Assembly: GCA_963825175.1 (NCBI GenBank)
Contig: CAWGSA010000001.1
Coordinates: forward strand, 1,116,706-1,180,705
Direction of reading: 5' to 3'
Source: an uncultured Acidobacteriota bacterium
GTDB taxonomy: Bacteria; Acidobacteriota; Thermoanaerobaculia; UBA5066; Gp7-AA6
DNA length: 64,000 nucleotides
In this document: piece by piece, positions 8,104 through 64,000 of the stretch
How positions within the stretch are numbered: position 1 is the first letter of the stretch
Layout of the letters: each line of letters opens with the position of its first letter
The notes under the pieces: model-generated
The model's database searches: none
The model's input: the letters and a program-made list of their open reading frames with translations, nothing else
Told to the model about the DNA's origin: nothing
Made by a program: the position numbers and the translations under genes

Positions 8104-8425
8104 ATGACCTGTCCTTCCCAATCGTGCACGTCGCCTACGCTCCGCTTCTGGATCTGCGCGCCTTGCGCGCACCGTCGGACGGCTCGCCCAAAGGAGCTCG
8201 ACCGTCCGCCTGATCCAGAGGCTCCGCTCCGGCTCCCGCAACGCGAGTCGTTTCGCGGCGTGCGTGCCGCGAAATTTGGTCGCGTTGCGAAGGCACGAGG
8301 ACCCAAAGACCAAAGACAAAAGCCAACGATCCGTGCACGTCGCCTACGCTCCGTCTTGGAATCTGCGCGCTTCGCGCGCACCGGCGTTCGGCTTGCCCAA
8401 AGGGTCGCGCCGCGACCGGGAGCTT
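8104..8425. repeat. two adjacent copies (one full, one truncated) of a REP/MITE-like structured repeat family
   Basis: The module GTGCACGTCGCCTACGCTCCG occurs at 8124 and 8333. Hairpin cores are at 8174-8210 (GTCGGACGG-CTCGCCCAAAGGAGCTCGA-CCGTCCGCC) and 8383-8417. The copy at 8104-8330 also carries the module GCTCCGGCTCCCGCAACGCGAGTCGTTTCGCGGCG...GCCGCGAAA, which is shared with copies at 9070, 29200 and 46400. Confidence 0.75.
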
Positions 8426-8656
8426 GGCGTGAAGAAAGAAAACCGTGCTCACGGGCTGATCGTGGCCGGCCGAGTCGGACACTTGGTTGCTGATCGCGGT
8501 TGGGGTCACCAGACAGTCAGGTTTGGAGGGGTGAGAATCCACGACAAGCGGACTTCCGGCGTGGTCGCCGACCACGGCGTCGCGTCGGTGCCGTAGGGGC
8601 GGCCCCTGCGGCCGCCCGTGTCGCGGCACACCCCGCCCTCCTCTATTCGTCGTCCG

Positions 8657-9064: not shown

Positions 9065-9200
9065 GTGCCCTTCGCGGCGCGACCAAGTTTCGCCGACTGG
9101 ATCGGCGAAACGACTCGCGTCGCGGGAGCCGGAGCGGAGCTCTCGGGATCAGGGCCGCGGCCGAGCCAAACGGGCGAGCCGCGGTCCGGTGCGCCCGCCA
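9065..9200. repeat. partial copy, reverse orientation, of the REP/MITE-like family
   Basis: CGGCGCGACCAAGTTTCGCCGACTGGATCGGCGAAACGACTCGCGTCGCGGGAGCCGGAGCGGAGC is nearly identical to 46428-46490, followed by a degenerate hairpin CCGAGCCAAACGGGCGAGCC. Confidence 0.65.
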
Positions 9201-9235
9201 GGGCACAGATCCGGAAGCGCAGCTCCGGCGACGTG

Positions 9236-10873: not shown

Positions 10874-10874
10874 C

Positions 10875-11765
10875 TCACGCACCGCGGGTGATCCGGGCGG
10901 ATGGCCCATCGGTCATCGGGTGATCGCAGCGTGATCGCAGCGTGATCGGGTGATCGAAAGAAGGCGCGCTCGCCGGGGGAGACGGAAAACACCCGAGCGT
11001 GAGTGGCGCGGATCGGCCGGAGGCCACGCGGCCGAGCTTCTCGAGTGTCAGGCGCGAGAAGAGACCGAAGAGAAGACGCGGCCCTCGTGTGCTCCCCCGC
11101 CAGACCGGACGCGCGGCGCCGGCGGCGACCACGGCGTCGGCGGCGATCCCGCTCATGCGGTAGGGGGTGAGAAGCAGGAGCGTCGATTCCTGGGCGGCAA
11201 CCGCCCGGGAGAGACGGACCCAGGCCGCGTCGGGCACGAATCGGCCGCCGCGCGGCGAGAGACCCATGTCGGCAACGACCAGGCGAAAGCCCGTCGACAG
11301 GAGCATCTCCGCCGCGGAGAGCGCTTCCTGGACCTTGCGGGGACGCACCCACAGCAGACGCGTCAGATCGACGCCGACAGACTCGGCCGCCTGGGGATCG
11401 AAAGCCCCTCCCAGGTCGACGAGCGCCGCGTCCTGGCCGCTTCCCGTCGCCGAGGCCAGGGCCGCGACCGCGATCGAAAAACGGCCGGCCGATCGCGCCC
11501 CCACGATCTCGACCAGCTTCGAGTCGGGAAGCCCGCCCAGAAGAGCGTCGAGGGGCGAGCGGGTCGGCAGCGCCGCCTGGGAGCACGCGGCCGCCGCCGG
11601 AAGGTCGCGAGCGCGCAGGAGCCGGGCGCCGGAGCCGGACAGCAGGGTCCCGTTCGGCTTTTTCGTGAAGCCGCGTCCGGCGAGAAATTGCTCCAGCGCG
11701 AGAGCTTGTGCAGTCGCCATTGAGGACAAGACCTCGATCCCCGCGTCGGGCAGGGAGATGCACAT
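10875..11765 (-). CDS. imuA: ImuA-like RecA/SulA-fold protein
   Basis: The pattern ...LVEIVGARSAGRFSIAVAALASATGSGQDAALVDLGGAFD matches ImuA/SulA-like proteins. Immediately upstream of and same orientation as imuB. The C-terminal 25 aa are encoded by a tandem repeat array, so the true stop is uncertain. Alternative start M16 at 11720. Confidence 0.6.
   Translation of the reverse strand: MCISLPDAGIEVLSSMATAQALALEQFLAGRGFTKKPNGTLLSGSGARLLRARDLPAAAACSQAALPTRSPLDALLGGLPDSKLVEIVGARSAGRFSIAVAALASATGSGQDAALVDLGGAFDPQAAESVGVDLTRLLWVRPRKVQEALSAAEMLLSTGFRLVVADMGLSPRGGRFVPDAAWVRLSRAVAAQESTLLLLTPYRMSGIAADAVVAAGAARPVWRGSTRGPRLLFGLFSRLTLEKLGRVASGRSAPLTLGCFPSPPASAPSFDHPITLRSRCDHPMTDGPSARITRGA
10899..10955. 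repeat. tandem array of GTGATCG(CAGC) motifs at the imuA 3' end
   Basis: CATCGGTCATCGGGTGATCGCAGCGTGATCGCAGCGTGATCGGGTGATCG. Same motif family as the array at 25447-25560. Confidence 0.65.
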
Positions 11766-25446: not shown

Positions 25447-25560
25447 GGGAATCGGGTGATCGCAGCGGGATCGGGTGATCGCAGCGGGATCGGGTGATCG
25501 CAGCGAGATCTCAGGTCACCGGTCGCCGATCACGCTGCGCTCCCGTTGCGATCATGCTGC
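25447..25560. repeat. intra-operon spacer array: 3 direct copies of GGGATCGGGTGATCGCAGC followed by 2 inverted partial copies
   Basis: gggaatcgggtgatcgcagcgggatcgggtgatcgcagcgggatcgggtgatcgcagcgagatc...gccgatcacgctgcg...gcgatcatgctgcgat, read directly. Confidence 0.75.
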
Positions 25561-25578: not shown

Positions 25579-26259
<681 letters not shown>

Positions 26260-26261
26260 GG

Positions 26262-26338
26262 AAATCGGATCATCGGTTCATCGGCTCATCGACTCATCGG
26301 CCCCTCGTCGAGCCGCAATCGACCGCTGGACCGATCGA
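26262..26338. repeat. spacer array of YCATCGG heptamers (4-5 direct copies) followed by inverted CCGATNG copies
   Basis: atcggatcatcggttcatcggctcatcgactcatcgg...gaccgatcgaccgatggaccgattcc. Confidence 0.7.
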
Positions 26339-26341
26339 CCG

Positions 26342-27601
26342 ATGGACCGATTCCCCATGACCGGCGCTTTCACCGAGCGCGTCCGCAATGCGTGGGTCGA
26401 GATGCGGGAGAACCTCGGCCGCGCCACCCTCCAGTCGCTCGGCGTGATGCTGGGAGTGGCCTCCGTCCTCGGGGGCTTCTCCATTTCCGACAGCCAGAGA
26501 AAACGCGCCGACGAGCTCTACATCCGCTTGGGCGGTCTGGACAAGTTGAACGTCCAGCCCTCCGCAGTGATCAAAGACGGCCAGCCCACGGCGCTGCAGA
26601 TGGCCAATCTCGGACTGCGCCGCGACGATGCCGACGAGGGACAGGGGCTCGACACCAAGGCGGTCAGCGGGGTCAGCCAGCAGAAATTCTTCCGGGCGCG
26701 GGTCCGGTCTCCCCAGGCCGACCAGGAGCGCCCGATCATCGGGATCGGAGGGGACTACCTTCCGATGGACGGCTACGCCATCGCGCGCGGGCGCGCCTTC
26801 ACCGCGGAGGACCTCGCGTCCGCCGCGCCGGTGGCCGTGCTGGGGACCGAGGCCGTGGAGACGTTCTTTCCCGACGGCCACGCTGTCGGCAAGACCCTGC
26901 GCGTCGGGGACACGCCGGTCCAGGTCGTGGGCGTCCTGCAGGAGCGCGTCTTTCGGTTTCGCAACTCGGGCCGCAACATCTTTCGCCGACGCAACCGCGT
27001 CATCGCGCTGCCGTCCACGCTGGTGGCGCGCCGGTTCCAGGGAGACCAGTATCACCGCCTCGACCGGGTGACGTTTCGCATCCGCGACCTGAACGCGATG
27101 GCGATCTTCTCCAAGAGCCTCTCGTCGATGTTGAAGGCGAACCACCGCCAGCAGGATGATTTCCGGCTGGACGACGTCGCGGCGCGGGTGCGCAAGGAGC
27201 AGAGCCAGGGCGACATCTACAACATCATCTTCATGCTCTCCGGCGTGCTCTCCCTGATCGGCGGAGGGCTGGTCAACGTCAACATCCAGATGGCGACGTT
27301 GAAGGAACGGGTCCGCGAGGTGGGCGTGAAGATGGCGATCGGCGCCTCGGGCCGCGAGGTCTTCAAGGAGTTCATGACCGAGGCGCTTCTCTTGACGGGG
27401 TTGGGCGGCGCCGTGGGGCTGGGCCTGGGAATCGCGTTTTCCAAGATCATCACCGCGTCGCTCGGAATCCCCCTGTTCATGCAGGGCAAGAGCTTCCTGT
27501 GGGCGTACTTCCTGGCCTCGGTCTTCGGCTTCTTCTTCGCGCTGTACCCGGCCTTCAAGGCCAGCCGCCTCTCTCCGATGGAGGCGCTGCACTATGAGTG
27601 A
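26342..27601 (+). CDS. ABC transporter permease (FtsX/MacB family)
   Basis: N-terminal TM, large periplasmic domain, and a C-terminal 3-TM FtsX domain. Starts MDRFPM. Confidence 0.75.
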   Translation: MDRFPMTGAFTERVRNAWVEMRENLGRATLQSLGVMLGVASVLGGFSISDSQRKRADELYIRLGGLDKLNVQPSAVIKDGQPTALQMANLGLRRDDADEGQGLDTKAVSGVSQQKFFRARVRSPQADQERPIIGIGGDYLPMDGYAIARGRAFTAEDLASAAPVAVLGTEAVETFFPDGHAVGKTLRVGDTPVQVVGVLQERVFRFRNSGRNIFRRRNRVIALPSTLVARRFQGDQYHRLDRVTFRIRDLNAMAIFSKSLSSMLKANHRQQDDFRLDDVAARVRKEQSQGDIYNIIFMLSGVLSLIGGGLVNVNIQMATLKERVREVGVKMAIGASGREVFKEFMTEALLLTGLGGAVGLGLGIAFSKIITASLGIPLFMQGKSFLWAYFLASVFGFFFALYPAFKASRLSPMEALHYE

Positions 27602-27813
27602 GGGAGGGATCGGTTTATCGGTTCATCGGTCCATCGGATCATTTGCCCGGATGGAGCGACCCCAGCCGAGATCAACCGATGAACCGATGGATAAATGGAC
27701 CGATTCCAGGGAGGGATCGGTTTATCGGTTCATCGGTCCATCGGATCATTTGCCCGGATGGAGCGACCCCAGCCGAGATCAACCGATGAACCGATGGATA
27801 AATGGACCGATTC
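27600..27813. repeat. perfect tandem duplication of a 107-bp unit built from CATCGG / CCGATG modules
   Basis: GGGAGGGATCGGTTTATCGGTTCATCGGTCCATCGGATCATTTGCCCGGATGGAGCGACCCCAGCCGAGATCAACCGATGAACCGATGGATAAATGGACCGATTCC occurs twice, at 27600-27706 and 27707-27813. The second copy runs into the start of the next gene. Confidence 0.85.
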
Positions 27814-29112
27814 CCCATGAGTAGCCTCGCCGTCCCCGCCGCCACACCGGCCGTCGAACGCCCCGTGCGTCGTCTGGGCATCCGCCAGCATCTCGCTCTG
27901 TACGGCGAGGTCGTGCGCGGGGGGTTCGTCGAGCTGTGGGCGCACAAGCTGCGGTCGACGCTGACGCTGACGCTTCTGATGCTCGGCGTCTTCGCGCTGG
28001 TCGTCATGACCTCGGTCCTCGACGGCGTGATGGACAAGATCGCGACGGGTTTTTCCGGCATGAGCTGGGATGGGACGATCCAGGTGTCGCCCAAGAGCCC
28101 GGAGACGACCGAGGAGCAGAAGCGGTTCGCCATGAGTCCCGGCCTGCGCTACGAGGATCTGTCCCGAATCGCCGCGCCGCATCCCAAGGTCCTCGGGTAC
28201 ATCCCGCGGGCCCAGAAGACTTCCGCCGTCCGCGTCGCCGGCGGCAGCGAGCGCATGTTCGTGATGGGCGTGAGGCACGATTACGCCAGCCTGATGAACC
28301 GGCCCATCGGACTGGGCCGGGGACTGACCGAGGACGACGAGCGCCGCCACTCGACCGTCGCCGTGGTCGGCGCGACCCTGGCCTCCAAGCTCTTCGGCGG
28401 TTCCGACCCCGTTGGGCGCGACATCACGGTCGAAGGGGTCCCGTTTCGCGTCGTCGGCGTCCAGGCGCCGGGGCAGCTCTTCTCCGACGAGAACTGGTAC
28501 GACGCCAACGGAATCCAGATTCCGCTCGAGACGTACATGGACCGGATCGATCCGGACCACAAGCTCGCGCAGCTCTCCGTCAAATTGAAGAAGAAGAAGG
28601 ATCTGGGCGAAGTCTCGGCGATGCTCCTGGCGCGGACCCGGGAGGCCCACCACGGGATCGAAGACGTGGAGATCGTGGACCTGGAAGCCGAGGGCGCCCG
28701 CTCCTGGCAGAACTTCCTGAACCAGATGCACGGATGGACGGTCGTCCTGATGAGCCTGGCCGGGACGGTTCTCTTAGTCGGAGGCGTGGGGATCCTGTCG
28801 GTCATGCTCATCTCGTTCTCCGACCGGCGCTACGAGATCGGCTTGCGCAAGGCCATGGGCGCGTCCGACGGGGAGGTGTTCGTGCAGTTTCTCCTGGAGG
28901 CGTGCGTGCTCGCGGCGGTCGGGGCCTCGGTCGGAACGTTCTTCGGATGGGGCCTTTGCACCGCTCTCGCCTCCAAGTTCCCGTACGGGCTGGTGGTCAA
29001 TCCCGTCGGTCTCGTCGTGGCATGGGGCTCGGCGCTCCTTCTGGCCGTCGTCTTCGGCATGTATCCGGCCGTGCGCGCGTCGCGGCTGTCGCCGATGGAG
29101 GCGATGAGGTAA
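27802..29112 (+). CDS. ABC transporter permease (FtsX/MacB family), second copy
   Basis: Same architecture as the 26342 gene. Also starts MDRFPM, preceded by the identical ggaccgattccccatga leader. Confidence 0.75.
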   Translation: MDRFPMSSLAVPAATPAVERPVRRLGIRQHLALYGEVVRGGFVELWAHKLRSTLTLTLLMLGVFALVVMTSVLDGVMDKIATGFSGMSWDGTIQVSPKSPETTEEQKRFAMSPGLRYEDLSRIAAPHPKVLGYIPRAQKTSAVRVAGGSERMFVMGVRHDYASLMNRPIGLGRGLTEDDERRHSTVAVVGATLASKLFGGSDPVGRDITVEGVPFRVVGVQAPGQLFSDENWYDANGIQIPLETYMDRIDPDHKLAQLSVKLKKKKDLGEVSAMLLARTREAHHGIEDVEIVDLEAEGARSWQNFLNQMHGWTVVLMSLAGTVLLVGGVGILSVMLISFSDRRYEIGLRKAMGASDGEVFVQFLLEACVLAAVGASVGTFFGWGLCTALASKFPYGLVVNPVGLVVAWGSALLLAVVFGMYPAVRASRLSPMEAMR

Positions 29113-29500
29113 ACGTCGCCTCCGCTGCGCGGCGGGATCTGCGGCTTCGGCCGCACCGGTGTCCGGCTCGGCCAAAGGCCTCGACCGGACGCCTGAGCCC
29201 GCCGCTTCGCTCCGGCTCCCGCGACGCGAGCCGTTTCGCTCGGTCAACTTCGCGAAACTTGGTCGCGTCGCGAAGGACCAACCAAGCCCGAAACCAACGT
29301 CGCCTCCGCTGCGCGGCGGGATCTGCGGCTTCGGCCGCACCGGTGTCCGGCTCGGCCAAAGGACCTCGACCGGACGCGAAGGCACCAACCAAGCCCGAAA
29401 ACCGGTGTCCGGCTCGGCCAAAGGCCTCGAGCGGTCGCCTGAGCCCGCGGCTCCGCGACGGCACCCCGAAGCCAGGCCCGTTTCCGGGGCCCTGAGGCAC
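29110..29500. repeat. three tandem copies of the REP/MITE-like structured repeat
   Basis: Hairpin cores GGTGTCCGG-CTCGGCCAAAGGCCTCGA-CCGGACGCC at 29158-29193, 29342-29377 and 29404-29440. The module CGGCGGGATCTGCGGCTTCGGCCGCACCGG repeats at 29126 and 29304. The GCTCCGGCTCCCGCGACGCGAGCCGTTTCGC module is at 29204. Confidence 0.8.
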
Positions 29501-38568: not shown

Positions 38569-40058
38569 GGAGGCGCGAGCCGGCACGGGCCCGCGTCGCG
38601 CTGCGCCTCGCTCTCGCGTTTTTCTCGTTCCTGCAGGGCGCCCTCCTCCTGGCCCAGGAGGGCTTCTCGCCGTTCACCTCCGATTTTCCGCCGGCGGAGT
38701 TCGCCGCCCGGCGCGAGAAGGTGTACGACGCGATCGGGGGAAAGACGGTCGCTCTTCTCCAGGGCGCGCCGACGCCCGTGGGGTACACGCGCTTCCGGCA
38801 GTCCAACGACTTCTATTACCTGTGCGGCATCGAAGTCCCCAACGCCTACCTCCTGCTCGACGGCGCCTCCCGCAAGACCACGCTCTATCTGCCGCACAGG
38901 AACGAGGGGCGGGAACGGGGCGAAGGAAAGGTACTCGCCGCCGAGGACGCGGAGGAGGTCCGCACGCTCTCCGGCGTGGACGCGGTCTTCGGAACCGACC
39001 TGATGGCCGAGCAGCTGGCGCGGCTGGTCCAGCGCTTCGACGGGCTGGCCGTTTCCACGCCCCTCTTTCCGCCCGAGGGGTTCGCCGAAAGCCGGGACCT
39101 GGCTCTGCGCCGCGTCGCGGAGCTGGGATCGGATCCGTGGGACCAGAGCCCTTCGCGGGCCGGCCGCCTGGTGTCGCTCTTGAAGGAGCGTTTCCCCAAC
39201 GTGGCGGTGACCGATCTCTCTCCGGCTCTCGACCGGCTGCGCGTCGTCAAGAGCCCGCGCGAGATCGCGGTGATCCGCAAAGCCACGCGCCTGGCCGATC
39301 TGGCCCTGCTGGAGGCGATGCGCTCGACGGAGCCCGGCCAGTACGAGCACGAGCTCGACGGGTTGGCCAAGTTCATCTATTACAGAAACGGCGCCCAGGG
39401 CGACGCCTACTACTCGCTGATCGCGTCGGGGCCCAACGCCTGGTGGCCGCACTACAACGCGGGCAAGCGCAAGATGGTCGACGGCGACTTCCTGCTCATG
39501 GATTACGCGCCCGACTACGGCTACTACATGAGCGACGTCACACGGATGTGGCCGGTCAACGGAAAGTACTCGCGCGCGCAGCGCGACCTCTACGGGTTCT
39601 ACCTGGCCTGCTACCGCGCCATCCTGAAGGCCATCCGGCCCGGCGTGATGCCGCCGGCGGCGATGCAGGAGGCGGCCGGCGAGATGGAGAAGATCCTGGC
39701 CTCGTCGAAATTCTCCAAAGAGATCTACCAGAAGGCCGCCCGCCAGTTCGTGGACGAGTACAAGAAAGGCGCCTCGCGGCAGGGTGCGGCGCTGGGCCAC
39801 TGGGTCGGCATGGCCACGCACGACGACGGCCCCCACGACGCGGCGCTCGCGCCGGGCAACGTCTTCACCATCGAGCCCGCGCTGCGCGTGCCCGAGGAGA
39901 AGATCTACATCCGCCTGGAGGACGTCATCGTGATCGGAGACAAGACGGCCGAGATCGTCAGCCACGTGACGCCGGAGGATCCCGACGCGATCGAGAAGAT
40001 CATGAAGGAAGCGGGGCTTCTGAAGAAGTATCCGAGGGCGGACTTCGCGAAGCCGTAG
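38565..40058 (+). CDS. M24 family metallopeptidase (Xaa-Pro aminopeptidase-like), secreted
   Basis: GTG start overlaps the preceding stop (GTGA). Signal peptide. The C-terminal half carries the M24 metal-binding region (GHWVGMATHD...FTIEP...IRLEDVIVI). Confidence 0.75.
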   Translation: MRRREPARARVALRLALAFFSFLQGALLLAQEGFSPFTSDFPPAEFAARREKVYDAIGGKTVALLQGAPTPVGYTRFRQSNDFYYLCGIEVPNAYLLLDGASRKTTLYLPHRNEGRERGEGKVLAAEDAEEVRTLSGVDAVFGTDLMAEQLARLVQRFDGLAVSTPLFPPEGFAESRDLALRRVAELGSDPWDQSPSRAGRLVSLLKERFPNVAVTDLSPALDRLRVVKSPREIAVIRKATRLADLALLEAMRSTEPGQYEHELDGLAKFIYYRNGAQGDAYYSLIASGPNAWWPHYNAGKRKMVDGDFLLMDYAPDYGYYMSDVTRMWPVNGKYSRAQRDLYGFYLACYRAILKAIRPGVMPPAAMQEAAGEMEKILASSKFSKEIYQKAARQFVDEYKKGASRQGAALGHWVGMATHDDGPHDAALAPGNVFTIEPALRVPEEKIYIRLEDVIVIGDKTAEIVSHVTPEDPDAIEKIMKEAGLLKKYPRADFAKP

Positions 40059-40095
40059 ATCGTGAGGCGTGAGGCGTTAGGCGTGAGGCGGAAGA
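40059..40095. repeat. spacer array of GGCGTGAGG nonamers
   Basis: gatcgtgaggcgtgaggcgttaggcgtgaggcgg. Reverse-complement family of the array at 58596-58656. Confidence 0.65.
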
Positions 40096-45453: not shown

Positions 45454-45654
45454 CAGCCCGTGGAAAAATGGATGCGGGCGTCGTGTCCGGCTTTTTGCAT
45501 AGGAAGTCTCGGCAACTCCAGCGGAGTCGAGAGGAGTCGAGATCTTCTTCCGCGGTGAGTGAAAGATCGCAAAAAGCCGGCCACCCCAAGGGGTTGCGGC
45601 GGCGCGGCGCTCGCACGCCACGCCGCCTCACACCCTTTTTCCACGGGCTGCGAG
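45453..45654. other. about 200-bp nested inverted-repeat structure (structured ncRNA or MITE candidate)
   Basis: GCAGCCCGTGGAAAAA (45453-45468) pairs with TTTTTCCACGGGCTGC (45637-45652). Inner pair CCGGCTTTTTGC (45492-45503) pairs with GCAAAAAGCCGG (45569-45580). Confidence 0.5.
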
Positions 45655-45780
45655 GAGACTTCTCGCGATGCGAGAGCTGCGACTTCGGCCCTGGACGTTC
45701 GACGCGCGCCGGCCGAGTGTCGCGATAGACTTGCGCCCGCCTCGATGGATCGGGGATCCGAAAGAAAGGAAATGCGAAAG

Positions 45781-46236
45781 ATGAAGAAGTCGGGCTTTCT
45801 GTTGCTGGCGGCCGCCCTCGCCGTGGCCCTGTCGATTCCGGCGATTGCCGACGAGAAGAAGGACGACAAGAAAGGCGAGTCCAAGATGCACAAGACGCCG
45901 AGCGGCCTCCAGTACGAGGACACGGTCGTCGGGGCCGGCGATTCCCCCAAGACCGGTCAGACCTGTGTGATGCACTACACCGGCTGGCTCTGGGAGAACG
46001 GCGCGAAAGGAAAGAAGTTCGACAGCTCCGTCGATCGCGGCAAGCCCTTCAAGTTCCAGATCGGCCGTGGCATGGTCATCAAGGGATGGGACGAAGGTGT
46101 GGCCACGATGAAGGTCGGCGGCAAACGGACTCTTCTCATCCCGCCGCAGCTCGGCTACGGCACGCAGGGCGCCGGCGGCGTCATCCCGCCCAACGCCACG
46201 CTGATGTTCGACGTGGAGCTGCTGGGGGTCGAGTAG
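45781..46236 (+). CDS. FKBP-type peptidyl-prolyl cis-trans isomerase (periplasmic)
   Basis: Signal peptide, then FKBP domain (GLQYEDTVVGAGDSPKTGQTCVMHYTGWL...FDSS...PFKFQIGRGMVIKGWDEGVATMKVGGKRTLLIPPQLGYG). Confidence 0.85.
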   Translation: MKKSGFLLLAAALAVALSIPAIADEKKDDKKGESKMHKTPSGLQYEDTVVGAGDSPKTGQTCVMHYTGWLWENGAKGKKFDSSVDRGKPFKFQIGRGMVIKGWDEGVATMKVGGKRTLLIPPQLGYGTQGAGGVIPPNATLMFDVELLGVE

Positions 46237-46239
46237 GGC

Positions 46240-46570
46240 GGTCGGCTTCCGGCTTGGCAAGGGCGAGGTGCAGGTCGCGTCCGCTCGATCGGGATCTGCG
46301 GGCCGGAGCGCGGACGGGGACTTGACGCGGGCGGCCGCGAGGGCCGCCCCTACGGCACCAATCGCAAACGTTCGTAGGGGAGGGGCTTGTCCCCGCCCCC
46401 GCTCCGGTTTGCCCGCGCTTTCGCGGCGCGACCAAGTTTCGCGGACTGAATCCGCGAAACGACTCGCGTCGCGGGAGCCGGAGCGGAGCGCGCGATGAGG
46501 CGTTTGGTCGAGCCCCTTTGGGCGAGCCAAACGCCGGTGCGCCGAAGGCGCACATCGCGAGCGAAGCGGA
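46240..46570. repeat. composite copy of the REP/MITE-like family
   Basis: CCGCTCGATCGGGATCTGCG module at 46281. CGAAAC...GTTTCG module at 46398-46490. Hairpin core GGCGTTTGG-TCGAGCCCCTTTGGGCGAGC-CAAACGCC at 46499-46535. Confidence 0.8.
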
Positions 46571-46595
46571 GGCGACGGTATTAACATCCCACCCC

Positions 46596-57466: not shown

Positions 57467-57844
57467 TCAGTACCGTCCGAAGTAGCGCGTGATGTCGAAG
57501 TAGAACGTCTTCTCCGTCCCGTCGGAGAGCACCACCATCACCTGATCGAAGGTCCGGCCGTTTTCCTGGACCACCAGGTTCTGCCGCTTGCGCTTGGCGT
57601 CGCCGAAGTGCGCGCGGATCCAGGCGTACTCCCAGGCCACTCCTTCGCTCTCCGTGTCTCGGGGCACCGGGACCGCCTTTTCGATGGACGAACCGTCCGC
57701 CCGGTCGACGTCTGCCGCGGCCGCCGGCGTGGGAGGAGACGGCCTGGGGGGCGACGCCCGCTCCGGCCGGCCCGAGGTCGCGGAGCAACCGACCCACGCG
57801 GTCAGAGCCACGACCCCAACGAGCGGCCGCGGAAGTCTGCGCAT
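57467..57844 (-). CDS. hypothetical lipoprotein
   Basis: Internal start MRRLPRPLVGVVALTAWVGC with a lipobox-like motif. The upstream part of the track ORF is rejected. Confidence 0.4.
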   Translation of the reverse strand: MRRLPRPLVGVVALTAWVGCSATSGRPERASPPRPSPPTPAAAADVDRADGSSIEKAVPVPRDTESEGVAWEYAWIRAHFGDAKRKRQNLVVQENGRTFDQVMVVLSDGTEKTFYFDITRYFGRY

Positions 57845-57939
57845 CGGTGGAAGAATATCGAAAGGCCGCCGGGCCCCCGGGGCAGCGCTCCCAACGCATC
57901 TGGCTCCGGACCCGGTGGCATAGTGTGGAGGGAGGACCG

Positions 57940-58410
57940 ATGACGACAGGCAAGAGTCTTCAGGAGACCTACGCGCCGGGCAACCGCTGCTTCGGCTGCG
58001 GGCCGGCCAACGAGAAGGGTTTGAGGATCGCAAGCTTCATCCAGGGGGAAGAGTGCGTGTGCGACTGGAAACCGCAGCCGCATCACCTTGCCTTCCCCGG
58101 CGCCGTCAACGGCGGGATCTGCGGCGCCCTGCTCGACTGCCACAGCAACTGGACCGCGGCGCACCACCTGATGCGCAAGGCCGGAGCGGCCGAGCTTCCG
58201 TCCACGGTGACCGCCGACTTTCACGTGAAGTTGAAGCGCGTGACCCCGATGGACGCCATGCTCCATCTGCGAGCGCACGTCGTCGAATCGACCGACGACA
58301 GGGCGGTCGTCGAAGCCGAGATCTCCGCCAACGGCAAGGTCACCGCCACGTGCCGCGGAACTTTCGTGGCGGTCCCGGAAGGACATCCCGCACACCATCG
58401 GTGGGAATAA
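57940..58410 (+). CDS. PaaI/hotdog-fold thioesterase
   Basis: ATG verified, with SD GGAGGGAGGA upstream. Motifs NGGICGALLD and CRGTF. Confidence 0.7.
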   Translation: MTTGKSLQETYAPGNRCFGCGPANEKGLRIASFIQGEECVCDWKPQPHHLAFPGAVNGGICGALLDCHSNWTAAHHLMRKAGAAELPSTVTADFHVKLKRVTPMDAMLHLRAHVVESTDDRAVVEAEISANGKVTATCRGTFVAVPEGHPAHHRWE

Positions 58411-58417
58411 CCGTCGC

Positions 58418-58575
58418 TTCCGCTCGATCGGGATCTGCGCTACGCGCACCGGCGTTCGGCTCGCCCAAAGGGGCTCGACCGAACGCCTGATCCCTCCCTC
58501 GCTCTCGCTCCCGCGGCGCTCGCCTCCTCCTTCGCTTCCGCTCAGGAGACTACGCGCGCCGCGAACCAGGCCTGA
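58418..58575. repeat. compact copy of the REP/MITE-like family
   Basis: CCGCTCGATCGGGATCTGCG, then hairpin GGCGTTCGG-CTCGCCCAAAGGGGCTCGA-CCGAACGCC at 58451-58487. Confidence 0.8.
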
Positions 58576-58595
58576 TCGAACCTCAAAGCGTAAGA

Positions 58596-58656
58596 GTCTC
58601 CGCCTCACGCCTCACGCCTTACGCCTCTCGCCTTACGCCTTACGCCTTACGCCCTT
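58596..58656. repeat. array of about 6 CCTCACGCC / CCTTACGCC nonamers abutting the stop codon of the DUF4097 gene
   Basis: cgcctcacgcctcacgccttacgcctctcgccttacgccttacgccttacgccc. Confidence 0.7.
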
Positions 58657-60166
58657 AACGCTTCAAGATCTCGATCGTGCCGTTGCTGTCGGTGAGCGTC
58701 ATCGGGCAGCGGCCGTCGCCAATCTTCCCCGACAATGACTCGCCGGAAACGTCTCCGGAGGTCGAGATGGGAAGGTCGCTGTGGATCCGTCCGAACGAGG
58801 TCCGAGCCGTCACGGCGTAGCTGGCGTTCTCCGGCACCGCCACGCGGATGGGAGCGAAGGACGTCTTGACCGAAACCTTCTGACAGGTCTTTCCCGAGAG
58901 GCGCACCTCGACGGTTCCGTTCTGGCTGTCCACGTCGACCGCGCCGGAGACCGACTCGAGCGACGTCGGCCCGAAGGAAGTGCGGACCGAGGCGTCTCCG
59001 GCGATGTCGCTTGCGCGCACGGATCCGTTGGCGTTCTCCACGGTCAATGCGCCGGCGATGCGAGCGGCCTCCGCGGGACCGAAGCTCGTCTTCACGTAGC
59101 TTGCTCCGCCGATGTCGGCGAGCATCACCCTCCCGTTGCCCGAGACGACTCTGGCTCCCTTGCCTACGTGCGTCACATGGATCTCGGCGAAACCGCCATG
59201 CACGTCGGCCGAGCCATCCACGTTGGCGAGCGTGACGGCCCCATTGGAGTCGGAGAGTGTCGCGTCCCCCCCGATGCCCGAGGCGTCGATCTCGCCGAAT
59301 CGGGTGGACAGCCGCGCGCCGCCGCGGACCTCACGCACGACGATGCGGCCATTGGTGTTCTCGACCTCCAGAGATCCGGCGACGCTTCGCACTTCGACCT
59401 TCCCGAAGGAGTTGGTGATCCGGGCCTCACCCCCGACGCCGTCGACCGTGACGTCCCCGTTTCCGTTGGCCACCGTGCAGCGGCGCGCGGCCCTGGTCAC
59501 GCTGACCCTGCCGAAACGATCGGTCACGTCCAGGTCGCCGCCGGCGTCCGCAGCGGTCACCGAGCCGTTGACGTTGACGACGGTCGTCGGACCCGCGCTG
59601 CCCGCGACGTCCACCGACCCAAAGGAGTTCTCGATCCTCGTCGATCCCCGGCCGCTGCGGACCTGGACCTTTCCGTTGCCGTTGACGATGTCCGTCCCCC
59701 CCTTGATTCCCTGCGCGTCCACATCGCCAAAGCGGTTTCGGACCTTCAAGGCCGCCCCTTCCGGCGTCGCGATGTCGTAGTCGACCGAGTAAGAGACGTA
59801 CCCCCGCCCCGAAAAGCTCCATTTTTTCTCCGGGAAGACCGTTCGCACCGAGACGCCGCCCGGCACGGCCTCGACCTCGATGCGAATGTCGTTGGCGAAC
59901 TTCTCCGCCCCTTCGCGATCCGAAGACGAGACACGAATCTTCGCGTCGATGGAAACCTCCGGCTCGGGGTGCGTGCGGACGCGGATGTCGCCGTTGCGAT
60001 GCTCGATCGACAAGGTCTGGCCGGGCTTCAGGGGCAGCGTCTTCTGAAACGTCCGGGCAAATTCCTCCCGGCCGGCCTCGGCCCGGGCGATCGCGGCGGC
60101 CAGGACAATCGCGAGGATCGCGGCCCACCGGGCGACGTGTGTGCGGACACGAGTGCGTGCGTTCAT
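58655..60166 (-). CDS. DUF4097 beta-strand repeat protein (putative adhesin-like)
   Basis: Signal peptide. Repeated NG.I.V...G motifs along the whole length. Start at MNARTRV (CAT complement 60164-60166). Final gene of the ECF sigma / anti-sigma operon. Confidence 0.65.
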   Translation of the reverse strand: MNARTRVRTHVARWAAILAIVLAAAIARAEAGREEFARTFQKTLPLKPGQTLSIEHRNGDIRVRTHPEPEVSIDAKIRVSSSDREGAEKFANDIRIEVEAVPGGVSVRTVFPEKKWSFSGRGYVSYSVDYDIATPEGAALKVRNRFGDVDAQGIKGGTDIVNGNGKVQVRSGRGSTRIENSFGSVDVAGSAGPTTVVNVNGSVTAADAGGDLDVTDRFGRVSVTRAARRCTVANGNGDVTVDGVGGEARITNSFGKVEVRSVAGSLEVENTNGRIVVREVRGGARLSTRFGEIDASGIGGDATLSDSNGAVTLANVDGSADVHGGFAEIHVTHVGKGARVVSGNGRVMLADIGGASYVKTSFGPAEAARIAGALTVENANGSVRASDIAGDASVRTSFGPTSLESVSGAVDVDSQNGTVEVRLSGKTCQKVSVKTSFAPIRVAVPENASYAVTARTSFGRIHSDLPISTSGDVSGESLSGKIGDGRCPMTLTDSNGTIEILKR

Positions 60167-60822
60167 GATTTGACCTCTTGGACGACCTGCTCGAGGGTGC
60201 GCTGCTTTTCCTGGTACATCGCCAGGAGCTCCTTTCGCAGGTGCGTGTTGAAGCTGTTCTGTTCCAGCTGGGACCGGAGATCGGCGATCGCCCCGTCGAT
60301 GAGCTGAATCTTCTCGCGGTACGAAACGAGGAGGGGACTCGTCGGCTCCTTCAGCTTGGGCCCGGCCAGAAGCGACAGGCGCTCGATCGCCGAGACGTAA
60401 CGCTCCTCCGACTTCTCCACGTCCGACAGCGCGTTCTCCGTCAACAGCGGCTCCTGGAGGTTTCGGGCCGGAATCAGCTCCCGCTCTCCGAGGCTCGGGC
60501 GGAAGACCTGAAGGCCGATCATCGCGACGACGAAGAGAACGGCCGCCGCGGCGAGCGGGAGCCAGGACCGGAAGAAATGGCGCCCGGGTGCCGGCCCGGC
60601 GGCGGATCGCGAGGCCGGCGCTCCGATCTCCTTCTCGATCCGGGACCACATCTGCCCGCTCTCCCATTCCTTCCTCAAGGACGGCGCTGCCTGGGAGATC
60701 GCGTGCCACAACGCGAGCCGCTCGCGGCATGGCTCGCAGCCCCGCCCGTGCGCTTCCAGCTCGGCCCAGACCGCCTCGCCGCCCCGGGCCAGAACGTCGT
60801 CGAAGCGCCCGCAAGCCCTCAT
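60163..60822 (-). CDS. anti-sigma factor (zinc-finger, single TM)
   Basis: HGRGCEPCRERLALWH ZAS-like motif, one TM helix (LPLAAAAVLFVVAMIGLQVF), periplasmic coiled-coil tail. Start overlaps the sigma gene stop (ATGA). Confidence 0.55.
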   Translation of the reverse strand: MRACGRFDDVLARGGEAVWAELEAHGRGCEPCRERLALWHAISQAAPSLRKEWESGQMWSRIEKEIGAPASRSAAGPAPGRHFFRSWLPLAAAAVLFVVAMIGLQVFRPSLGERELIPARNLQEPLLTENALSDVEKSEERYVSAIERLSLLAGPKLKEPTSPLLVSYREKIQLIDGAIADLRSQLEQNSFNTHLRKELLAMYQEKQRTLEQVVQEVKS

Positions 60823-61457
60823 GCCCGAGCCTCCCGCTCCTGCCACAGTCGACGCTGGAGCTCGCGCTTGGCCTCGAAGAGCAGAGACCGCGACGTCGCC
60901 TCCGGCACCCCGAGAATGTCGCCGACTTCCCGATGGCTGAAGCCCTCGACCTCGAAGAGGAGGAAGGCCGTGCGCCGCTTGGGATCCAGGGCGGTCAAAG
61001 ACGCCTCGAGATCCAGGCGCAGCGGGTGGTCCGCCTGCGCCGCGGCGGTCTCGAGCGCTCCCGCGGCATCGAGCGATGGTGCCGAAGTCTCGAATGCGCG
61101 CGAGCGCCGGCGCAGCGCGTCGTAGCACGTATTGACCAGGACCCGGTAAGCCCACGTCGAAATCCTGGCAGAGCCGCGGAAAGACGGCGCGGCCCGGTAG
61201 ATCTTCAGGAACGTTTCCTGAACCGCGTCCTCGGCGTCGGGGCGACTGCCCAGGAGGTTGGCGGCGAGGCTCTTCATCCGCGCTCCGTGAGACTGGTAGA
61301 GCCGCTCGAAAGCGGATACGTCTCCCCGGCGGCAGGCTTCGAGAAGGTCCGCCTCGGACTCGGACGCCGCCCCTCCATCAGTCTCTTGCCCCAGGGAGTC
61401 CCTCCTCTCCCGTGGAACGACGGGCAGCCCATTCTGCAACGCAAAGGCAGGCGCCAC
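60819..61457 (-). CDS. RNA polymerase ECF-type sigma-70 factor
   Basis: Region 2 DAVQETFLKIYRAA...WAYRVLVNTC. Region 4 LFEVEGFSHREVGDILGVPEATSRSLLFEAKRELQ. Confidence 0.85.
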   Translation of the reverse strand: MAPAFALQNGLPVVPRERRDSLGQETDGGAASESEADLLEACRRGDVSAFERLYQSHGARMKSLAANLLGSRPDAEDAVQETFLKIYRAAPSFRGSARISTWAYRVLVNTCYDALRRRSRAFETSAPSLDAAGALETAAAQADHPLRLDLEASLTALDPKRRTAFLLFEVEGFSHREVGDILGVPEATSRSLLFEAKRELQRRLWQEREARA

Positions 61458-61482
61458 ACTGTTTCATCCTTTCCACCCGTTG

Positions 61483-61508
61483 AGACGCCCGGGCCGGGCG
61501 ATTCGTTG
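61483..61508 (-). promoter_or_regulatory. candidate ECF-type autoregulated promoter (AAC-N17-CGTC)
   Basis: Minus strand caacgaatcgcccggcccgggcgtctcaa, about 35 nt upstream of the sigma ATG. Confidence 0.3.
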
Positions 61509-61539
61509 GGGGCATCGGAGGCCGTTATAGAGTCGCCAC

Positions 61540-62058
61540 GTGCGCGGCGTTCTGCTCCGGCCGGCCGGAGCGGTCCTTCTTCTGCTTCTTCCGTCCCTGG
61601 CGCAGGGCCAGCGGGCCATCTTCGTCGTGCGCCACGCGGAGAAGGCGACCGAATCCAATGACCCGCCTGTGCCCCTGTCGCCCGCCGGGACCGAGCGCGC
61701 CCGACGGCTGGCGGCCATGCTGAAGGACGCCGGCGTCACCGCGATTTTCGCGACGGACTTCGTGCGGACGCGGGCGACGGCGCAGCCCCTGGCCGAGATG
61801 CGTCACGTCGCGGTTCGGATCTACGCCCCCAAGGACGCGCAGGGGCGGCCCACGGCGGAGCCGCTTCTCCAGCAGCTTCATAAGCTCCGCTCCGACGACG
61901 TCGCGCTCGTCGTCGGCCACGGCGACACGGTGCCGGTTCTCCTCCAGGGCCTCGGTGTCGCGGAGCCGATTGCGATCGGCGGCGGCGAGTACGACAACCT
62001 CTTCGTGGTCGTGCCGCAACCCGGCGGACGTCCGCTCCTGCTTCGCCTGCGCTTCTGA
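61540..62058 (+). CDS. histidine phosphatase family protein (SixA/phosphoglycerate mutase-like), secreted
   Basis: Signal peptide, then IFVVRHAEK (RHG-type catalytic motif). Confidence 0.65.
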   Translation: MRGVLLRPAGAVLLLLLPSLAQGQRAIFVVRHAEKATESNDPPVPLSPAGTERARRLAAMLKDAGVTAIFATDFVRTRATAQPLAEMRHVAVRIYAPKDAQGRPTAEPLLQQLHKLRSDDVALVVGHGDTVPVLLQGLGVAEPIAIGGGEYDNLFVVVPQPGGRPLLLRLRF

Positions 62059-62147
62059 CGTCACCGCCCTCCAGCGACCACTTCGACGGCCGCCGGTTCC
62101 ACAATCGGGAGCGTGACGAAAGAACGCTCTTCGATTTTCTTCGCTGG

Positions 62148-63038
62148 ATGCGCAAGCGCCGCCCGGGCGCGTGGCGGCCGTTCATCGACGCGCCGCCGGG
62201 ACCAGCGCCGCCGCGCCGCGTGGCCGACCTGCGCGTGACTTTCGTCAACCACGCGACTCTGCTGGTCCAGGCCGGCGACGTCAACATCTTGACCGACCCG
62301 GTCTGGTCCGAACGCGTCTCCCCCGTCCCGTGGATCGGCCCGCGCCGCCGGCGGCCGGCCGGGATCCGCTGGCGCGACCTGCCGCAGATCGATCTGGTTC
62401 TGGTGTCGCACGATCATTACGACCACCTGGATCTGCCCACGCTGAGGGCTCTGGAACGCCGCGACCGGCCCGACTTCTTCTGCGGGCTCAAAGTCGGAGA
62501 GCTGCTGCGCCGGCAAGGGTTTTCGCAGGTCCTGGAGCTCGACTGGTGGCAGAGCGTTCCTGCCCGGCCGGGCCTCTCCGTGACGTCGGTTCCCGCCGAG
62601 CATTTCTCCGGCCGCGGCCCGATCCTGCGCAATCGCACGCTGTGGACCGGATTCGTCCTGTCCGGGTCCGCGGGCGGAGTCTATTTCGCCGGCGACACGG
62701 GATGGGGCCCGCACTTCGCCGAGATCGGGCGCCGCGCCGGGCCGATCCGTCTGGCGCTTCTGCCGATCGGTGCCTCCAGGCCGGAGTGGTTCATGGGTCC
62801 GGTGCACCTTTCGCCGTCGCAGGCGCTCGACGCGCACCGGGATCTCGACGCGGGCACCTCCGTCGGGATGCACTACGGCACGTTCCGCCTGGCCGACGAC
62901 GGGCAGGACGAGCCGGCGGCGGAGATCGAACGGCTCCTGGCCAGCGCCGCCCCTGCGCCCCCGCGCTTCTGGCTCCTCGAGCACGGCGAGGGTCGCGACG
63001 TGCCGTCGCCTTCGCTGCGCGCGGATCCTGCGCCCTGA
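62148..63038 (+). CDS. MBL fold metallo-hydrolase (COG2220-like)
   Basis: VSHDHYDHLD (HxHxDH) motif. The in-frame upstream region encodes a conserved-looking GRRFHNRE segment but has no ATG/GTG/TTG start. Confidence 0.7.
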   Translation: MRKRRPGAWRPFIDAPPGPAPPRRVADLRVTFVNHATLLVQAGDVNILTDPVWSERVSPVPWIGPRRRRPAGIRWRDLPQIDLVLVSHDHYDHLDLPTLRALERRDRPDFFCGLKVGELLRRQGFSQVLELDWWQSVPARPGLSVTSVPAEHFSGRGPILRNRTLWTGFVLSGSAGGVYFAGDTGWGPHFAEIGRRAGPIRLALLPIGASRPEWFMGPVHLSPSQALDAHRDLDAGTSVGMHYGTFRLADDGQDEPAAEIERLLASAAPAPPRFWLLEHGEGRDVPSPSLRADPAP

Positions 63039-63135
63039 CGGGCGCACCGGCGTTTGGCTCGCCCAAAGGGGCTCAACCAAACGCCTGGCCCCGTGCTCGC
63101 TCCGGCTCCCCGCGGCGCGCGACTCCTCCCTTGGT
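63035..63135. repeat. copy of the REP/MITE-like family
   Basis: Hairpin GGCGTTTGG-CTCGCCCAAAGGGGCTCAA-CCAAACGCC at 63049-63085, followed by GCTCCGGCTCCCCGCGGCG. Confidence 0.75.
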
Positions 63136-63240
63136 TACTGCGGGAGCTTCGCGCGCCGCGGACGAGGGCTGGCCCCGGCGGCCTTCGTGCCTCCGAGCGA
63201 AGGTCGCGCGCAGATCACGAATCGGAGCGGAGGCGACGGC

Positions 63241-64000
63241 CTACGCGGCCGCGGTGTGGCTGCTCTTCTCGATCTCGGAGACGACCACGGGCCACCCGTC
63301 GCGGACGCTTCCGTAGCGCGGCGCCCAGGCCGACGCGGCGCGCAGCTTCCGGTTGGAGATCCGTTCCGATCGCCCGAGAAGTTGGCCAGTCGAGCCGAGG
63401 AGACGGAAGGTCCAGGCCGGCGCAAATCGGGGGCGCTCCACGCCGAGCGCGCCGGCGAGCGCGTCGAAGTACTCCCGCCGCGTCACCGGCTCGTCGTCGC
63501 TGACGTTGTAGACGCCGGGCGGCAAGGCGAGAGCCGCGAGCGCCGCCGCGGCCGCGTCGTCGTGGGACACCGAGGCGACGAACGCCTCCGGCTTTCCGGG
63601 CAACGGCACCCAGCCGCGCCGCACCAGACGGATCATGTCGATCGAGAACAGCGAATCCGGTCCATAGAAACCGGCAAAACGCAGAACGACGCCCGCGCCT
63701 CCGGCTGTCGTGAAGCGGACGGCGGATCGCTCGGCGTCGGCGACCGTGCGGTTGTAGCGGGTGGGCTCGAGCGGCGTGTCCTCGGAGATCCATTCCGCGC
63801 CGCGGTCCGGATAGACCGGCGCAAACGACTCCTGCACGAAGCGCCTGACGCCGCCCGCGAGTGCCGCGTCCACCAGATTGGCGGATCCCTCGCGCCGGAT
63901 GCGGTCGTTCTCCTTCCAGGCGCCGGGCAGAAACACGCGCGAGGACGACGCGGGCATGTGCGTGGCGAGATTGTAAACAGCGTCATGGCCGGCCACGGCG
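63241..64000 (-). CDS. NAD-dependent epimerase/dehydratase family protein; N-terminal part runs off the window
   Basis: Partial ORF with ...DAVYNLA...; the start lies beyond the window end. Confidence 0.65.
   Translation of the reverse strand, partial: AVAGHDAVYNLATHMPASSSRVFLPGAWKENDRIRREGSANLVDAALAGGVRRFVQESFAPVYPDRGAEWISEDTPLEPTRYNRTVADAERSAVRFTTAGGAGVVLRFAGFYGPDSLFSIDMIRLVRRGWVPLPGKPEAFVASVSHDDAAAAALAALALPPGVYNVSDDEPVTRREYFDALAGALGVERPRFAPAWTFRLLGSTGQLLGRSERISNRKLRAASAWAPRYGSVRDGWPVVVSEIEKSSHTAAA

Follow-up and report, generated by a model that had tools for sequence, protein, structure and literature searches.

A branched, structurally covarying intergenic repeat of Thermoanaerobaculia that resembles REP/BIME and PATE elements and is anchored at stop codons

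What is the folded repeat that recurs between the genes of an uncultured Acidobacteriota bacterium of the class Thermoanaerobaculia, and why do so many of its copies begin directly behind a stop codon? The question was raised by a stretch of 64,000 nucleotides of contig CAWGSA010000001.1 (assembly GCA_963825175.1), referred to here as the window, which has a G+C content of 69%, and in particular by the repeat copy at 58412-58567 on the forward (+) strand. An earlier inspection of the letters alone, the sequence-only reading, had described a dispersed, structured family similar to repetitive extragenic palindromes (REPs) or miniature inverted-repeat transposable elements (MITEs). We favor, with moderate confidence, the explanation that it is a non-coding, non-autonomous family with units of about 160 nt, similar to REPs and bacterial interspersed mosaic elements (BIMEs) or to palindrome-associated transposable elements (PATEs), specific to Thermoanaerobaculia and copied by a structure-dependent, orientation-specific process.

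The core pattern of the repeat, GGCTCG[C/G]CCAAAGG(N1-3)CTCRA, occurred seven times in the window and not once in 100 dinucleotide-preserving shuffles, and a core 23-mer was found at five places with at most three mismatches, compared with 0.01 expected. A repeat finder recovered the same sites together with their flanking modules, in both orientations. A covariance model of 161 positions and 38 pairs (R1) was built from 62 copies, and its unfiltered scan of the window returned six full-length and four to five partial copies. The proposed count of at least nine copies in both orientations therefore stands, and their positions had been given correctly to within 10-30 nt.

The anatomy of the unit was derived from alignments of 101 and 62 copies and from single-sequence folds, which were in agreement. 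The unit is about 160 nt long and asymmetric, and it contains five helices (P1-P5), three of which (P1, P2 and P3) form a three-way junction. The copy at 58412-58567 (R1 match 58410-58567, 149 bits) is complete, belongs to the majority type and represents the type under study. It starts 1 base past the TAA stop codon (58408-58410) of a PaaI-like thioesterase gene with the leader CGTCGCTTCCGCT (58412-58424), an unpaired segment of 13 nt that carries a CGTC tag and has the consensus [A/C]CGTCGCCTCCGCT. In an alignment of 137 copies, 118 started with [A/C]CGTCGC (loose match CG[T/G]C..), and the tag was unpaired in the consensus fold. P1 (58430-58435 paired with 58489-58494) is typically GGGATC/GATCCC with an irregular extension. 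P2 (58436-58448) is a hairpin of very variable length and sequence, ranging from GGC-TTCG-GCC to stem-loops of 50-58 nt. In P3, the outer stem (58451-58459 paired with 58479-58487) has the form CCGG-CG-NNN-GG opposite CC-NNN-CG-CC, and a near-invariant internal loop, GGCTCG...CTCGACC, surrounds a small capping hairpin (loop and hairpin, 58458-58480) that can be CCC-AAAG-GGG, GCC-AAAG-GGC, CGYG-GATR-CRCG or others. A C-rich linker (...CGCTCCGGCTCC; 58495-58511) leads to the second domain (58512-58562), where P4 (CGCGGCGCGNG / CNCGCGCCGCG) encloses P5, which exists in two types, TCCTCCC...GGGAGA (type A) and GTTTCGCGG...CCGCGAAAC (type B). The 3' end reads GCG-A-R-C, after which the conservation fades into an A/C-rich tail with 6% T. 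On the + strand, C accounts for 43% of the unpaired columns and for 50% of the linker, compared with 24% G in the columns and 3% A in the linker. The 58412-58567 copy folds with z scores of -3.3 (+ strand) and -3.9 (- strand) as RNA and -3.55 (+ strand) as DNA.

The nested hairpin that the sequence-only reading took for the core is thus present, but it is only one arm of the three-way junction. Likewise, the flanking modules that it saw combining in different ways do exist, but they are parts of a single element, namely the leader, P1, P2, P3, the linker and a P4/P5 domain of two types. Pairing of the CGTCGC tag with the 3' GCGA(N)CG into a terminal helix was considered and rejected, as it showed no covariation in the alignment and competes with P4. 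Two orthologous copies (L005 6677-6818 and L076 1688-1845) were identical in leader, P1 and P3, whereas their 50-58-nt P2 hairpins were entirely different, which suggests cassette-like replacement of the P2 tip or a nested insertion into it.

Evidence for a structural constraint came from covariation, which was strong and was measured in a model-based alignment of the 137 copies, drawn from 96 sources. Paired bases filled 94.9% of the cells, compared with 80.6% after partners were shuffled and 31-47% after one side was slid by 1-3 columns. Double changes were found at 32 of the 38 pairs, and the number of double-change cells (588, compared with 162 in shuffles) was not reached in any of 500 shuffles; in the 62-copy alignment, RNAalifold predicted 38 pairs, 25 of them with double changes. 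One pair of the inner stem was C-G in 70 copies and G-C in 56, and the most variable pair of the outer stem was CG in 31, GC in 27, UA in 27 and AU in 18. Pairing is strictly Watson-Crick, with compensatory changes in all helices; an apparent U-G in P5 was a register error of the automatic structure and disappeared in the correct register. These data bore out the compensatory substitutions first noticed in the outer and inner stems and, with them, the description of a dispersed, structured REP/MITE-like family. The individual stem pairs cited for it are present in the sequence, but GTCGGACGG/CCGTCCGCC at 8174 contains one T-C mismatch.

The remaining mismatches bear on how the copies age. RNA under selection would tolerate G-U but not A-C, while neutral transitions in a helix that was perfect at first would give both equally on either strand. 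Among about 4,200 cells of P1-P4 there were 44 G-T, 61 A-C and 76 C-T or T-C mismatches, and one stem change was uncompensated between the orthologous copies L013 and L024. Since G-T was about as frequent as A-C and this change went uncompensated, the structure appears to be constrained at the copying step, after which resident copies drift; they look like neutrally decaying products of structure-dependent copying. Of the two causes offered earlier, selection on structure or templated amplification, either would fit if it acts at the copying step, but the mismatch counts gave no sign of ongoing selection at the RNA level. The same stem variants recurred across species, and dispersed copies within one genome were 80-93% identical, which marks the family as an old one made up of several lineages that breed true.

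The ends of the unit were examined in 117 distinct 5' ends. The 5' end is sharp, with C or A at position -1 in 113 of them. TAA, TAG or TGA lay 0-3 nt (mode 1 nt) before CGTC in 57 of the 117, compared with about 8% expected from base composition, which substantiated the observation that copies abut stop codons. Forty-three of these 57 triplets close a long, co-oriented open reading frame (ORF) with a high G+C content at third codon positions; the other 14 are stop-like triplets, some of which belong to real genes that failed the strict filter, including the thioesterase gene beside the 58412 copy. In 4 of the 117 cases an ORF runs 16-35 nt into the element. One of them is the MBL-fold hydrolase ORF 62148-63038 (assigned with Pfam), whose last 35 nt form the beginning of the copy at 63002-63164 and whose stop codon lies inside the element, so that the copies are not all intergenic as had been thought. 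In 36 confident cases the adjoining stop codon was TAA, TAG or TGA 20, 10 and 6 times, compared with 28, 118 and 232 in the background, a 7-fold excess of TAA (odds ratio 15.6, p = 7e-12).

The element is also oriented with respect to its neighbors. The upstream gene was co-oriented in 82 cases and opposed in 34 (71% vs 29%), and the distance to it showed a sharp peak at 3-4 nt. Among the 92 copies that could be classified, tandem spacers contained 36 in co-orientation and 19 in antisense, convergent spacers 29 and divergent spacers 8; divergent (promoter) spacers are avoided. Single units carried no terminal inverted repeats (TIRs), as the 5' (CGTCGCCTCCGCT) and 3' (CGCGCCGCGARC) ends are unrelated, and inverted leaders were found only where two units face each other (63004-63240, 46273-46579 and L010 1296-1887). 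No target-site duplication was seen as a repeated flank or in comparisons of filled and empty sites. A duplication of the stop triplet was considered, since stop-like triplets are fairly frequent 4-12 nt past the 3' end, and was rejected, because they have no fixed offset and do not match the 5' triplet (3 of 12 matched, judged by eye). The possibility that the element supplies its own TAA was rejected as well, because the stop codon stands at an unchanged position in empty orthologous sites, and TAA or TGA may already be present there (L076, L051/L017 and L121).

A scan for the core pattern covered 185,579 species-representative genomes and matched at least 113 stretches. Among the matches listed, about 95 were true copies, all in metagenome-assembled genomes (MAGs) labeled as Thermoanaerobaculia or Acidobacteriota, while about 18 in other phyla had no flanking similarity and were attributed to chance. 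One 20-nt pattern match in viral contigs was not confirmed by R1. The family occurred in at least 36 independent MAG assemblies from several unrelated projects; hence it is neither confined to the window nor an assembly artefact.

Comparison of orthologous intergenic regions, an approach suggested by the sequence-only reading, yielded both filled and empty sites (L120, L051/L017 and L076). In the metagenomic contig L120, only TGA-GCCTCG-TCA, with a 6-nt spacer between the two stop codons, lies between the thioesterase ortholog (80% identical) and the convergent gene that the window also has; the window has at this site TAA, a 158-nt element, a heptamer array and TTA, with both stop codons at the same protein positions. 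L121 has a 78-nt spacer without the element. At an operon junction in L010, three units (two direct and one inverted, leaders outward) lie between TGA and the GTG of the next gene, where the orthologous junctions of L051 and L017 have spacers of 12-13 nt. A recent difference is an extra unit of L005 right after TAA compared with L076, with flanks 92-94% identical. The MAG locus L080, which is syntenic with the window at about 80% identity, has other versions of the element in the spacer corresponding to 8.1-9.2 kb, a hot site; at the site of the 9069-9233 copy it has about 100 nt that, on reading the sequence, may be a deleted remnant, and it also contains a very similar copy at another place. 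Copies at non-homologous loci were 88-93% identical. The filled and empty orthologous sites indicate that gain and loss of units proceed at the pace of species divergence, and since the stop positions are the same with and without the element, the adjoining stop codons are the genes' own.

Several known repeats share some of these properties. Like REPs and BIMEs, the family is high-copy and extragenic, lies mostly downstream of genes in tandem or convergent spacers, forms GC-rich hairpins, carries an unpaired conserved 5' tag (here CGTC), occurs as single units, inverted pairs and clusters, and has ends that can touch or supply stop codons. REPs and BIMEs with GTAG or CGTC tags, however, consist of one hairpin of 20-40 bp, and in the CGTC REPs, the nearest class described in print, the stem is 8-9 bp long and opens with A-T pairs, the loop measures 4-5 nt, there is a CCA tail and no transposase is known (Di Nocera et al. 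2013, PMC3733652). The present element has none of these three stem, loop and tail features; it differs further in its length of 160 nt, its five helices and three-way junction, and a stop-codon anchoring and TAA bias much sharper than described for REPs, and no REP-associated tyrosine transposase (RAYT) flanked by its copies was found in five loci with three Y1 proteins. With the PATEs of IS200/IS605 insertion sequences (ISs) it shares the lack of TIRs and duplications, different ends with subterminal hairpins, conservation of fold over sequence, and probably orientation-specific insertion 3' of a short A/T-rich target, as in the mechanism of IS608 and ISDra2. Unlike in PATEs, the target is degenerate, T[A/G]A[C/A] being present in roughly half of the copies, the hairpin domains are of much greater size, neither a TnpA nor a TnpB partner with these ends was found in the loci studied, and local GC skew gave no sign of a replication-strand bias.

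The enterobacterial repetitive intergenic consensus (ERIC, or intergenic repeat unit, IRU) and the Correia elements (NEMIS) of Neisseria are likewise folded intergenic repeats of 100-160 nt with structure-preserving changes, and they are co-transcribed with neighboring genes. They are near-perfect long palindromes with TIRs, with TA duplications in the case of Correia, whereas the present element is asymmetric, branched and stop-anchored. Mycobacterial interspersed repetitive units (MIRUs) resemble it in being placed exactly at gene boundaries inside operons, touching stop or start codons, but they are tandem units of 46-101 bp with small ORFs rather than branched hairpins. No Rfam 15 family matched the window at gathering thresholds, and at E <= 10 the element gave two meaningless long non-coding RNA matches. 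No relation to tRNA or transfer-messenger RNA was found, and a reading of the three-way junction as a hammerhead or other ribozyme was dropped, as Rfam lent it no support. The suggestion that copies act as terminators was not supported for terminators of the canonical intrinsic (Rho-independent) kind, since the element has no T-run and no terminator-like site was found at the copies in 57800-63400. No description of repeats from Thermoanaerobaculia was found in the searched literature. The family is best read as REP/BIME/PATE-like, and it is unusual in its multi-domain fold, its hypervariable P2 and its anchoring at stop codons, TAA above all.

How would such a unit spread? That it is a non-autonomous mobile repeat whose movement depends on structure is, in this broad form, a statement we make with considerable confidence. 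Copies would be made by a structure-dependent, orientation-specific process in which an enzyme acting in trans probably recognizes the single strand in its folded form together with the conserved loop inside P3. The most plausible process would be single-stranded DNA transposition of the HUH/Y1 type, IS200/IS605- or RAYT-like, although this specific mechanism is a tentative proposal that we regard as rather doubtful. The element would insert immediately 3' of a short A-rich target, and in a genome of 69% G+C it would be chiefly stop codons and spacers that still offer such targets; this we propose as the reason for the placement next to stop codons. Insertions inside genes would be purged by selection, and the inserted copies would decay nearly neutrally. 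As a side effect, a large stable structure and C-rich single strands would be added to the 3' untranslated region (UTR) of the upstream gene.

Several results weigh against this explanation. The end structures are far more elaborate than the known hairpins of IS200/IS605 elements or REPs. About half of the 5' ends have no adjoining stop-like triplet, and no common target was found there. Insertion into lagging-strand single-stranded DNA predicts a strand bias, and yet orientation was split 67 to 67 with respect to local GC skew, a crude proxy in 8-kb pieces; the orientation thus tracks the neighboring gene and not the skew. No autonomous partner was detected, in that no transposase recurred beside copies among 587 clustered ORFs from the loci and no ORF was bracketed by the two end domains. 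The only Y1 gene adjoining a copy has its own perfect 27-nt TIRs, GGGTCAGTCGTG..., which are unrelated to the element. Finally, near-identical dispersed copies, which would point to recent activity, were absent from a small per-genome sample.

The search for a mobilizing enzyme can be described further. The recurrent neighbors were only large housekeeping paralogue families, namely kinases, ABC ATPases, sigma-54 activators, GGDEF proteins and ECF sigma factors. No full-length IS with the ends of the element was found in 0.86 Mb of loci, where the order of a first domain, an ORF and a second domain was searched with a very strict pattern, and no TnpA (Y1) or TnpB partner with matching ends was present among the loci studied. 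Y1 (HUH) transposase genes do occur in the host genomes. A tblastn search found one Y1 gene beside a copy of the element, and with homologues in four further loci this made five loci with three Y1 proteins, three of the loci being copies of one gene. The Y1 gene beside the copy lies about 50 nt from it (L086/L114; PF01797, E = 9e-17; NCBIfam REP_Tyr_transpos, 75 bits with a cutoff of 80), and the element is 13 nt outside the TIRs of this gene, which carry the motif GGGGWSAS, a mark of the 'TIRtrons' of Acidobacteria (PMC3733652). No R1 match flanks the Y1 genes in L115-L118. Given the separate TIRs of the adjoining gene and the copy-free state of the other Y1 loci, this small test did not support the idea that the copies are RAYT substrates, although a RAYT or other HUH enzyme encoded elsewhere may be responsible.

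These loci provided some observations of their own. The TIRtrons at L114 4967-5969 (the reverse complement of L086) and L116 4928-5967 combine a Y1_Tnp and Bac_DnaA_C gene with inverted repeats of 27-33 nt starting GGGGTCAGTCGTG; in L116 the right repeat also occurs in additional solo copies. In L115 (3513-5864), a Y1_Tnp gene is immediately preceded by an RVT_1 reverse-transcriptase gene of 491 aa, and an integrase and an rve-type transposase are a few kb away. A second repeat family, unrelated to the first and made of classical GTAG-tagged REP-like hairpins (GTAGGGGCGGCC...GGCCGCCC / GTAGGGGAGGGGCTTGTCCCCGCCCC), often adjoins copies of the main element or lies between them (window 8587-8641 and 46305-46400; L076 1846-1921; flanks in L048 and L051). 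These hairpins are expected to be more obvious RAYT substrates than the main element.

The most serious competitor of the transposition model is a functional 3'-UTR RNA module, with its spread being secondary; we judge it unlikely, though worth keeping in view. As part of the transcript of the upstream gene, the module would set a very stable structure and C-rich single strands just past the terminating ribosome, and it could block 3'-exonucleases, load Rho to end transcription, or both, in a genome without hairpin-plus-U terminators. The predominance of co-oriented upstream genes, the avoidance of divergent spacers and the start 0-3 nt past the stop codon would all suit such a module. The unpaired leader of 13 nt would place the first helix at about the edge of a terminating ribosome, judged from its general footprint, the C-rich, G-poor unpaired strand and linker are rut-like, and the TAA excess could offset the weak C or A imposed at position +4. 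The copies were also 85-92% conserved, compared with about 80% identity of the coding flanks. On the other hand, G-U is no commoner than A-C or C-U mismatches, a stem change went uncompensated between orthologous copies, 29% of the copies run opposite to the upstream gene and 19 are in antisense orientation within tandem spacers, units are inserted inside operon junctions, and both a T-run and an Rfam family match are lacking. A role in the 3' UTR could nevertheless exist as a secondary effect of a mobile repeat. Less probable still is that the units are REPs in the strict sense, moved by a dedicated RAYT whose own gene is flanked by copies (a REPtron). The unpaired 5' CGTC recalls the CGTC-tagged REP super-family (PMC3733652), the placement is REP-like with occasional head-to-head or tail-to-tail pairs, and there is the Y1_Tnp/RAYT-like gene close to the copy in L086/L114. 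That gene, however, is bounded by its own TIRs with the element outside, the Y1 genes of L115-L118 are free of flanking copies, a RAYT would be expected to act on the classical GTAG REPs that the same genomes contain, and the published CGTC REPs are single hairpins without an associated transposase (PMC3733652).

Two further origins must be set against the same data. A classical MITE, that is, an internally deleted DDE-type IS with TIRs and target duplications, would account for the face-to-face pairs with outward leaders noted above, which look TIR-bounded, and the TA-containing flanks recall the IS families that target TA or TNA. We consider this very improbable, as most copies are single and asymmetric with differing ends, no end duplication exists, the 5' and 3' stop triplets of a copy are unmatched, and the stems vary with compensation between copies, unlike TIRs that bind a transposase. 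Sites of site-specific recombination behind gene cassettes, such as the attC sites of integrons, share with the element a conserved fold with variable sequence, a probable folded single-strand form and a position right after the stop codon of the preceding gene (often ...TAAC). Such an origin is hardly credible here, because the ends lack RYYYAAC/GTTRRRY (R''/R') core sites, the neighbors are ordinary chromosomal genes in both orientations with no cassette arrays or integrase context, and orthologous genes at one and the same chromosomal position either have or lack the element. Structure-dependent copying of a non-autonomous repeat thus remains our preferred explanation.

The other copies in the window illustrate the range of arrangements. 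The complete copy at 63004-63164 (+; R1 match 63002-63164, 124 bits), which overlaps the hydrolase ORF, faces a partial inverted copy at 63107-63240 (-; R1 32 bits; 5' tag 63226-63238). The two have the palindromic P4/P5 domain in common and their tags point outward, which is why the pair looks TIR-bounded. The copy at 46418-46579 (-; R1 152 bits) is complete, has a second domain of type B (GTTTCGCGG..CCGCGAAAC) and is antisense to both neighbors, an FKBP gene (45559-46236) and the following E1 dehydrogenase gene; its 5' tag is at 46565-46577, preceded on its own strand by TTAATA. It is faced by a degenerate leader/P1 fragment, GTCGCGTCCGCTCGATCGGGATCTGCG, at 46273-46300 (+; tag match with 2 mismatches), with GTAG-type REP hairpins in between and a weak partial R1 match at 46343-46477(+).

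Near 29 kb, a complete type B copy at 29114-29276 (+; R1 match 29112-29276, 129 bits) begins 1 base past the TAA of a MacB/FtsX-like gene (27802-29112; Pfam) and opens a tandem cluster. It is followed at 29298-29470 (+) by direct repeats, consisting of a truncated second unit with the first domain only and then a third P3 fragment and a tail; R1 matched this region partially at 29296-29403(+) with 57 bits and at 29404-29439(+) with 24 bits. Another complete type B copy, at 8129-8293 (+; R1 match 8127-8293, 123 bits), has one mismatch in the outer stem of P3 and is flanked on both sides by minus-strand genes, to which it is antisense. Behind it, at 8338-8444 (+; R1 match 8336-8444, 35 bits), is a truncated tandem second unit with leader, P1, P2 and half of P3, a direct repeat with 85% identity. 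The complete but diverged copy at 9069-9233 (-; R1 match 9069-9235, 84 bits) has an inner hairpin loop GTTT and starts 2 bases past the TAG of an IMS (DinB-like) gene, 9236-10909(-).

Other repeats were noticed in the same material. Arrays of a tandemly repeated heptamer, (GGCGTRA)n, start at the native stop codon of a gene (window 58599-58655 on the - strand and 40050-40092 on the + strand; L015 7431-7451; L022 7935-7962). Their period of 7 nt places TAA or TGA in all three frames, and three of the four arrays share a spacer with the main element, where they lie toward the convergent gene. A perfect tandem duplication of 107 nt (27601-27814) is located at the junction of two MacB/FtsX-like permease genes, with a third copy, 64% identical, at 26248-26354. 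Octamer runs, GGGGAGAC/GGGGGGAC, were found at 9457-9505 and 10491-10531, within the IMS (DinB-like) ORF or at its ends, and short tandem repeats with a 19-nt unit (GTGATCGCAGCGGGATCGG) at two distant intergenic places, 25451-25514 and 10915-10956. The ORF 18746-21481(-), of 911 aa, is filled by 11-12 diverged repeats of 144 nt (48 aa) ending ...GTCCCGTCGCTCNTCCAGAG, and its product is presumably a beta-propeller-like repeat protein.

Thermoanaerobaculia are Acidobacteria of soils and sediments, where they are abundant, and they have hardly been brought into culture. If the density in the window is typical, the family would occupy hundreds of intergenic sites per genome, where it reshapes the 3' ends of genes, can extend ORFs, as at 63002, and splits operon junctions, as in L010. 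R1 can be used to annotate the copies and to avoid mis-called ORFs and small RNAs in such MAGs. With five helices, heavy covariation and a near-invariant loop, the family is a clean natural data set on the structure-dependent copying of DNA repeats, and its TAA anchoring offers a testable handle on the choice of sites by REP-like elements and on what moves the 'orphan' CGTC-type elements. A bolder idea, to which we give a low but real chance, is that this is a mobile unit that recognizes gene ends, either by inserting specifically at stop codons (TAA > TAG > TGA) through a mechanism undescribed for bacterial repeats, or as a transferable 3'-UTR module adapted to the ribosome at termination. 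The latter may be built from the 13-nt leader, which resembles an anti-Shine-Dalgarno sequence, followed by structure and then by the rut-like C-rich strands. If true, such a module would set the formation or stability of mRNA 3' ends for hundreds of Thermoanaerobaculia genes.

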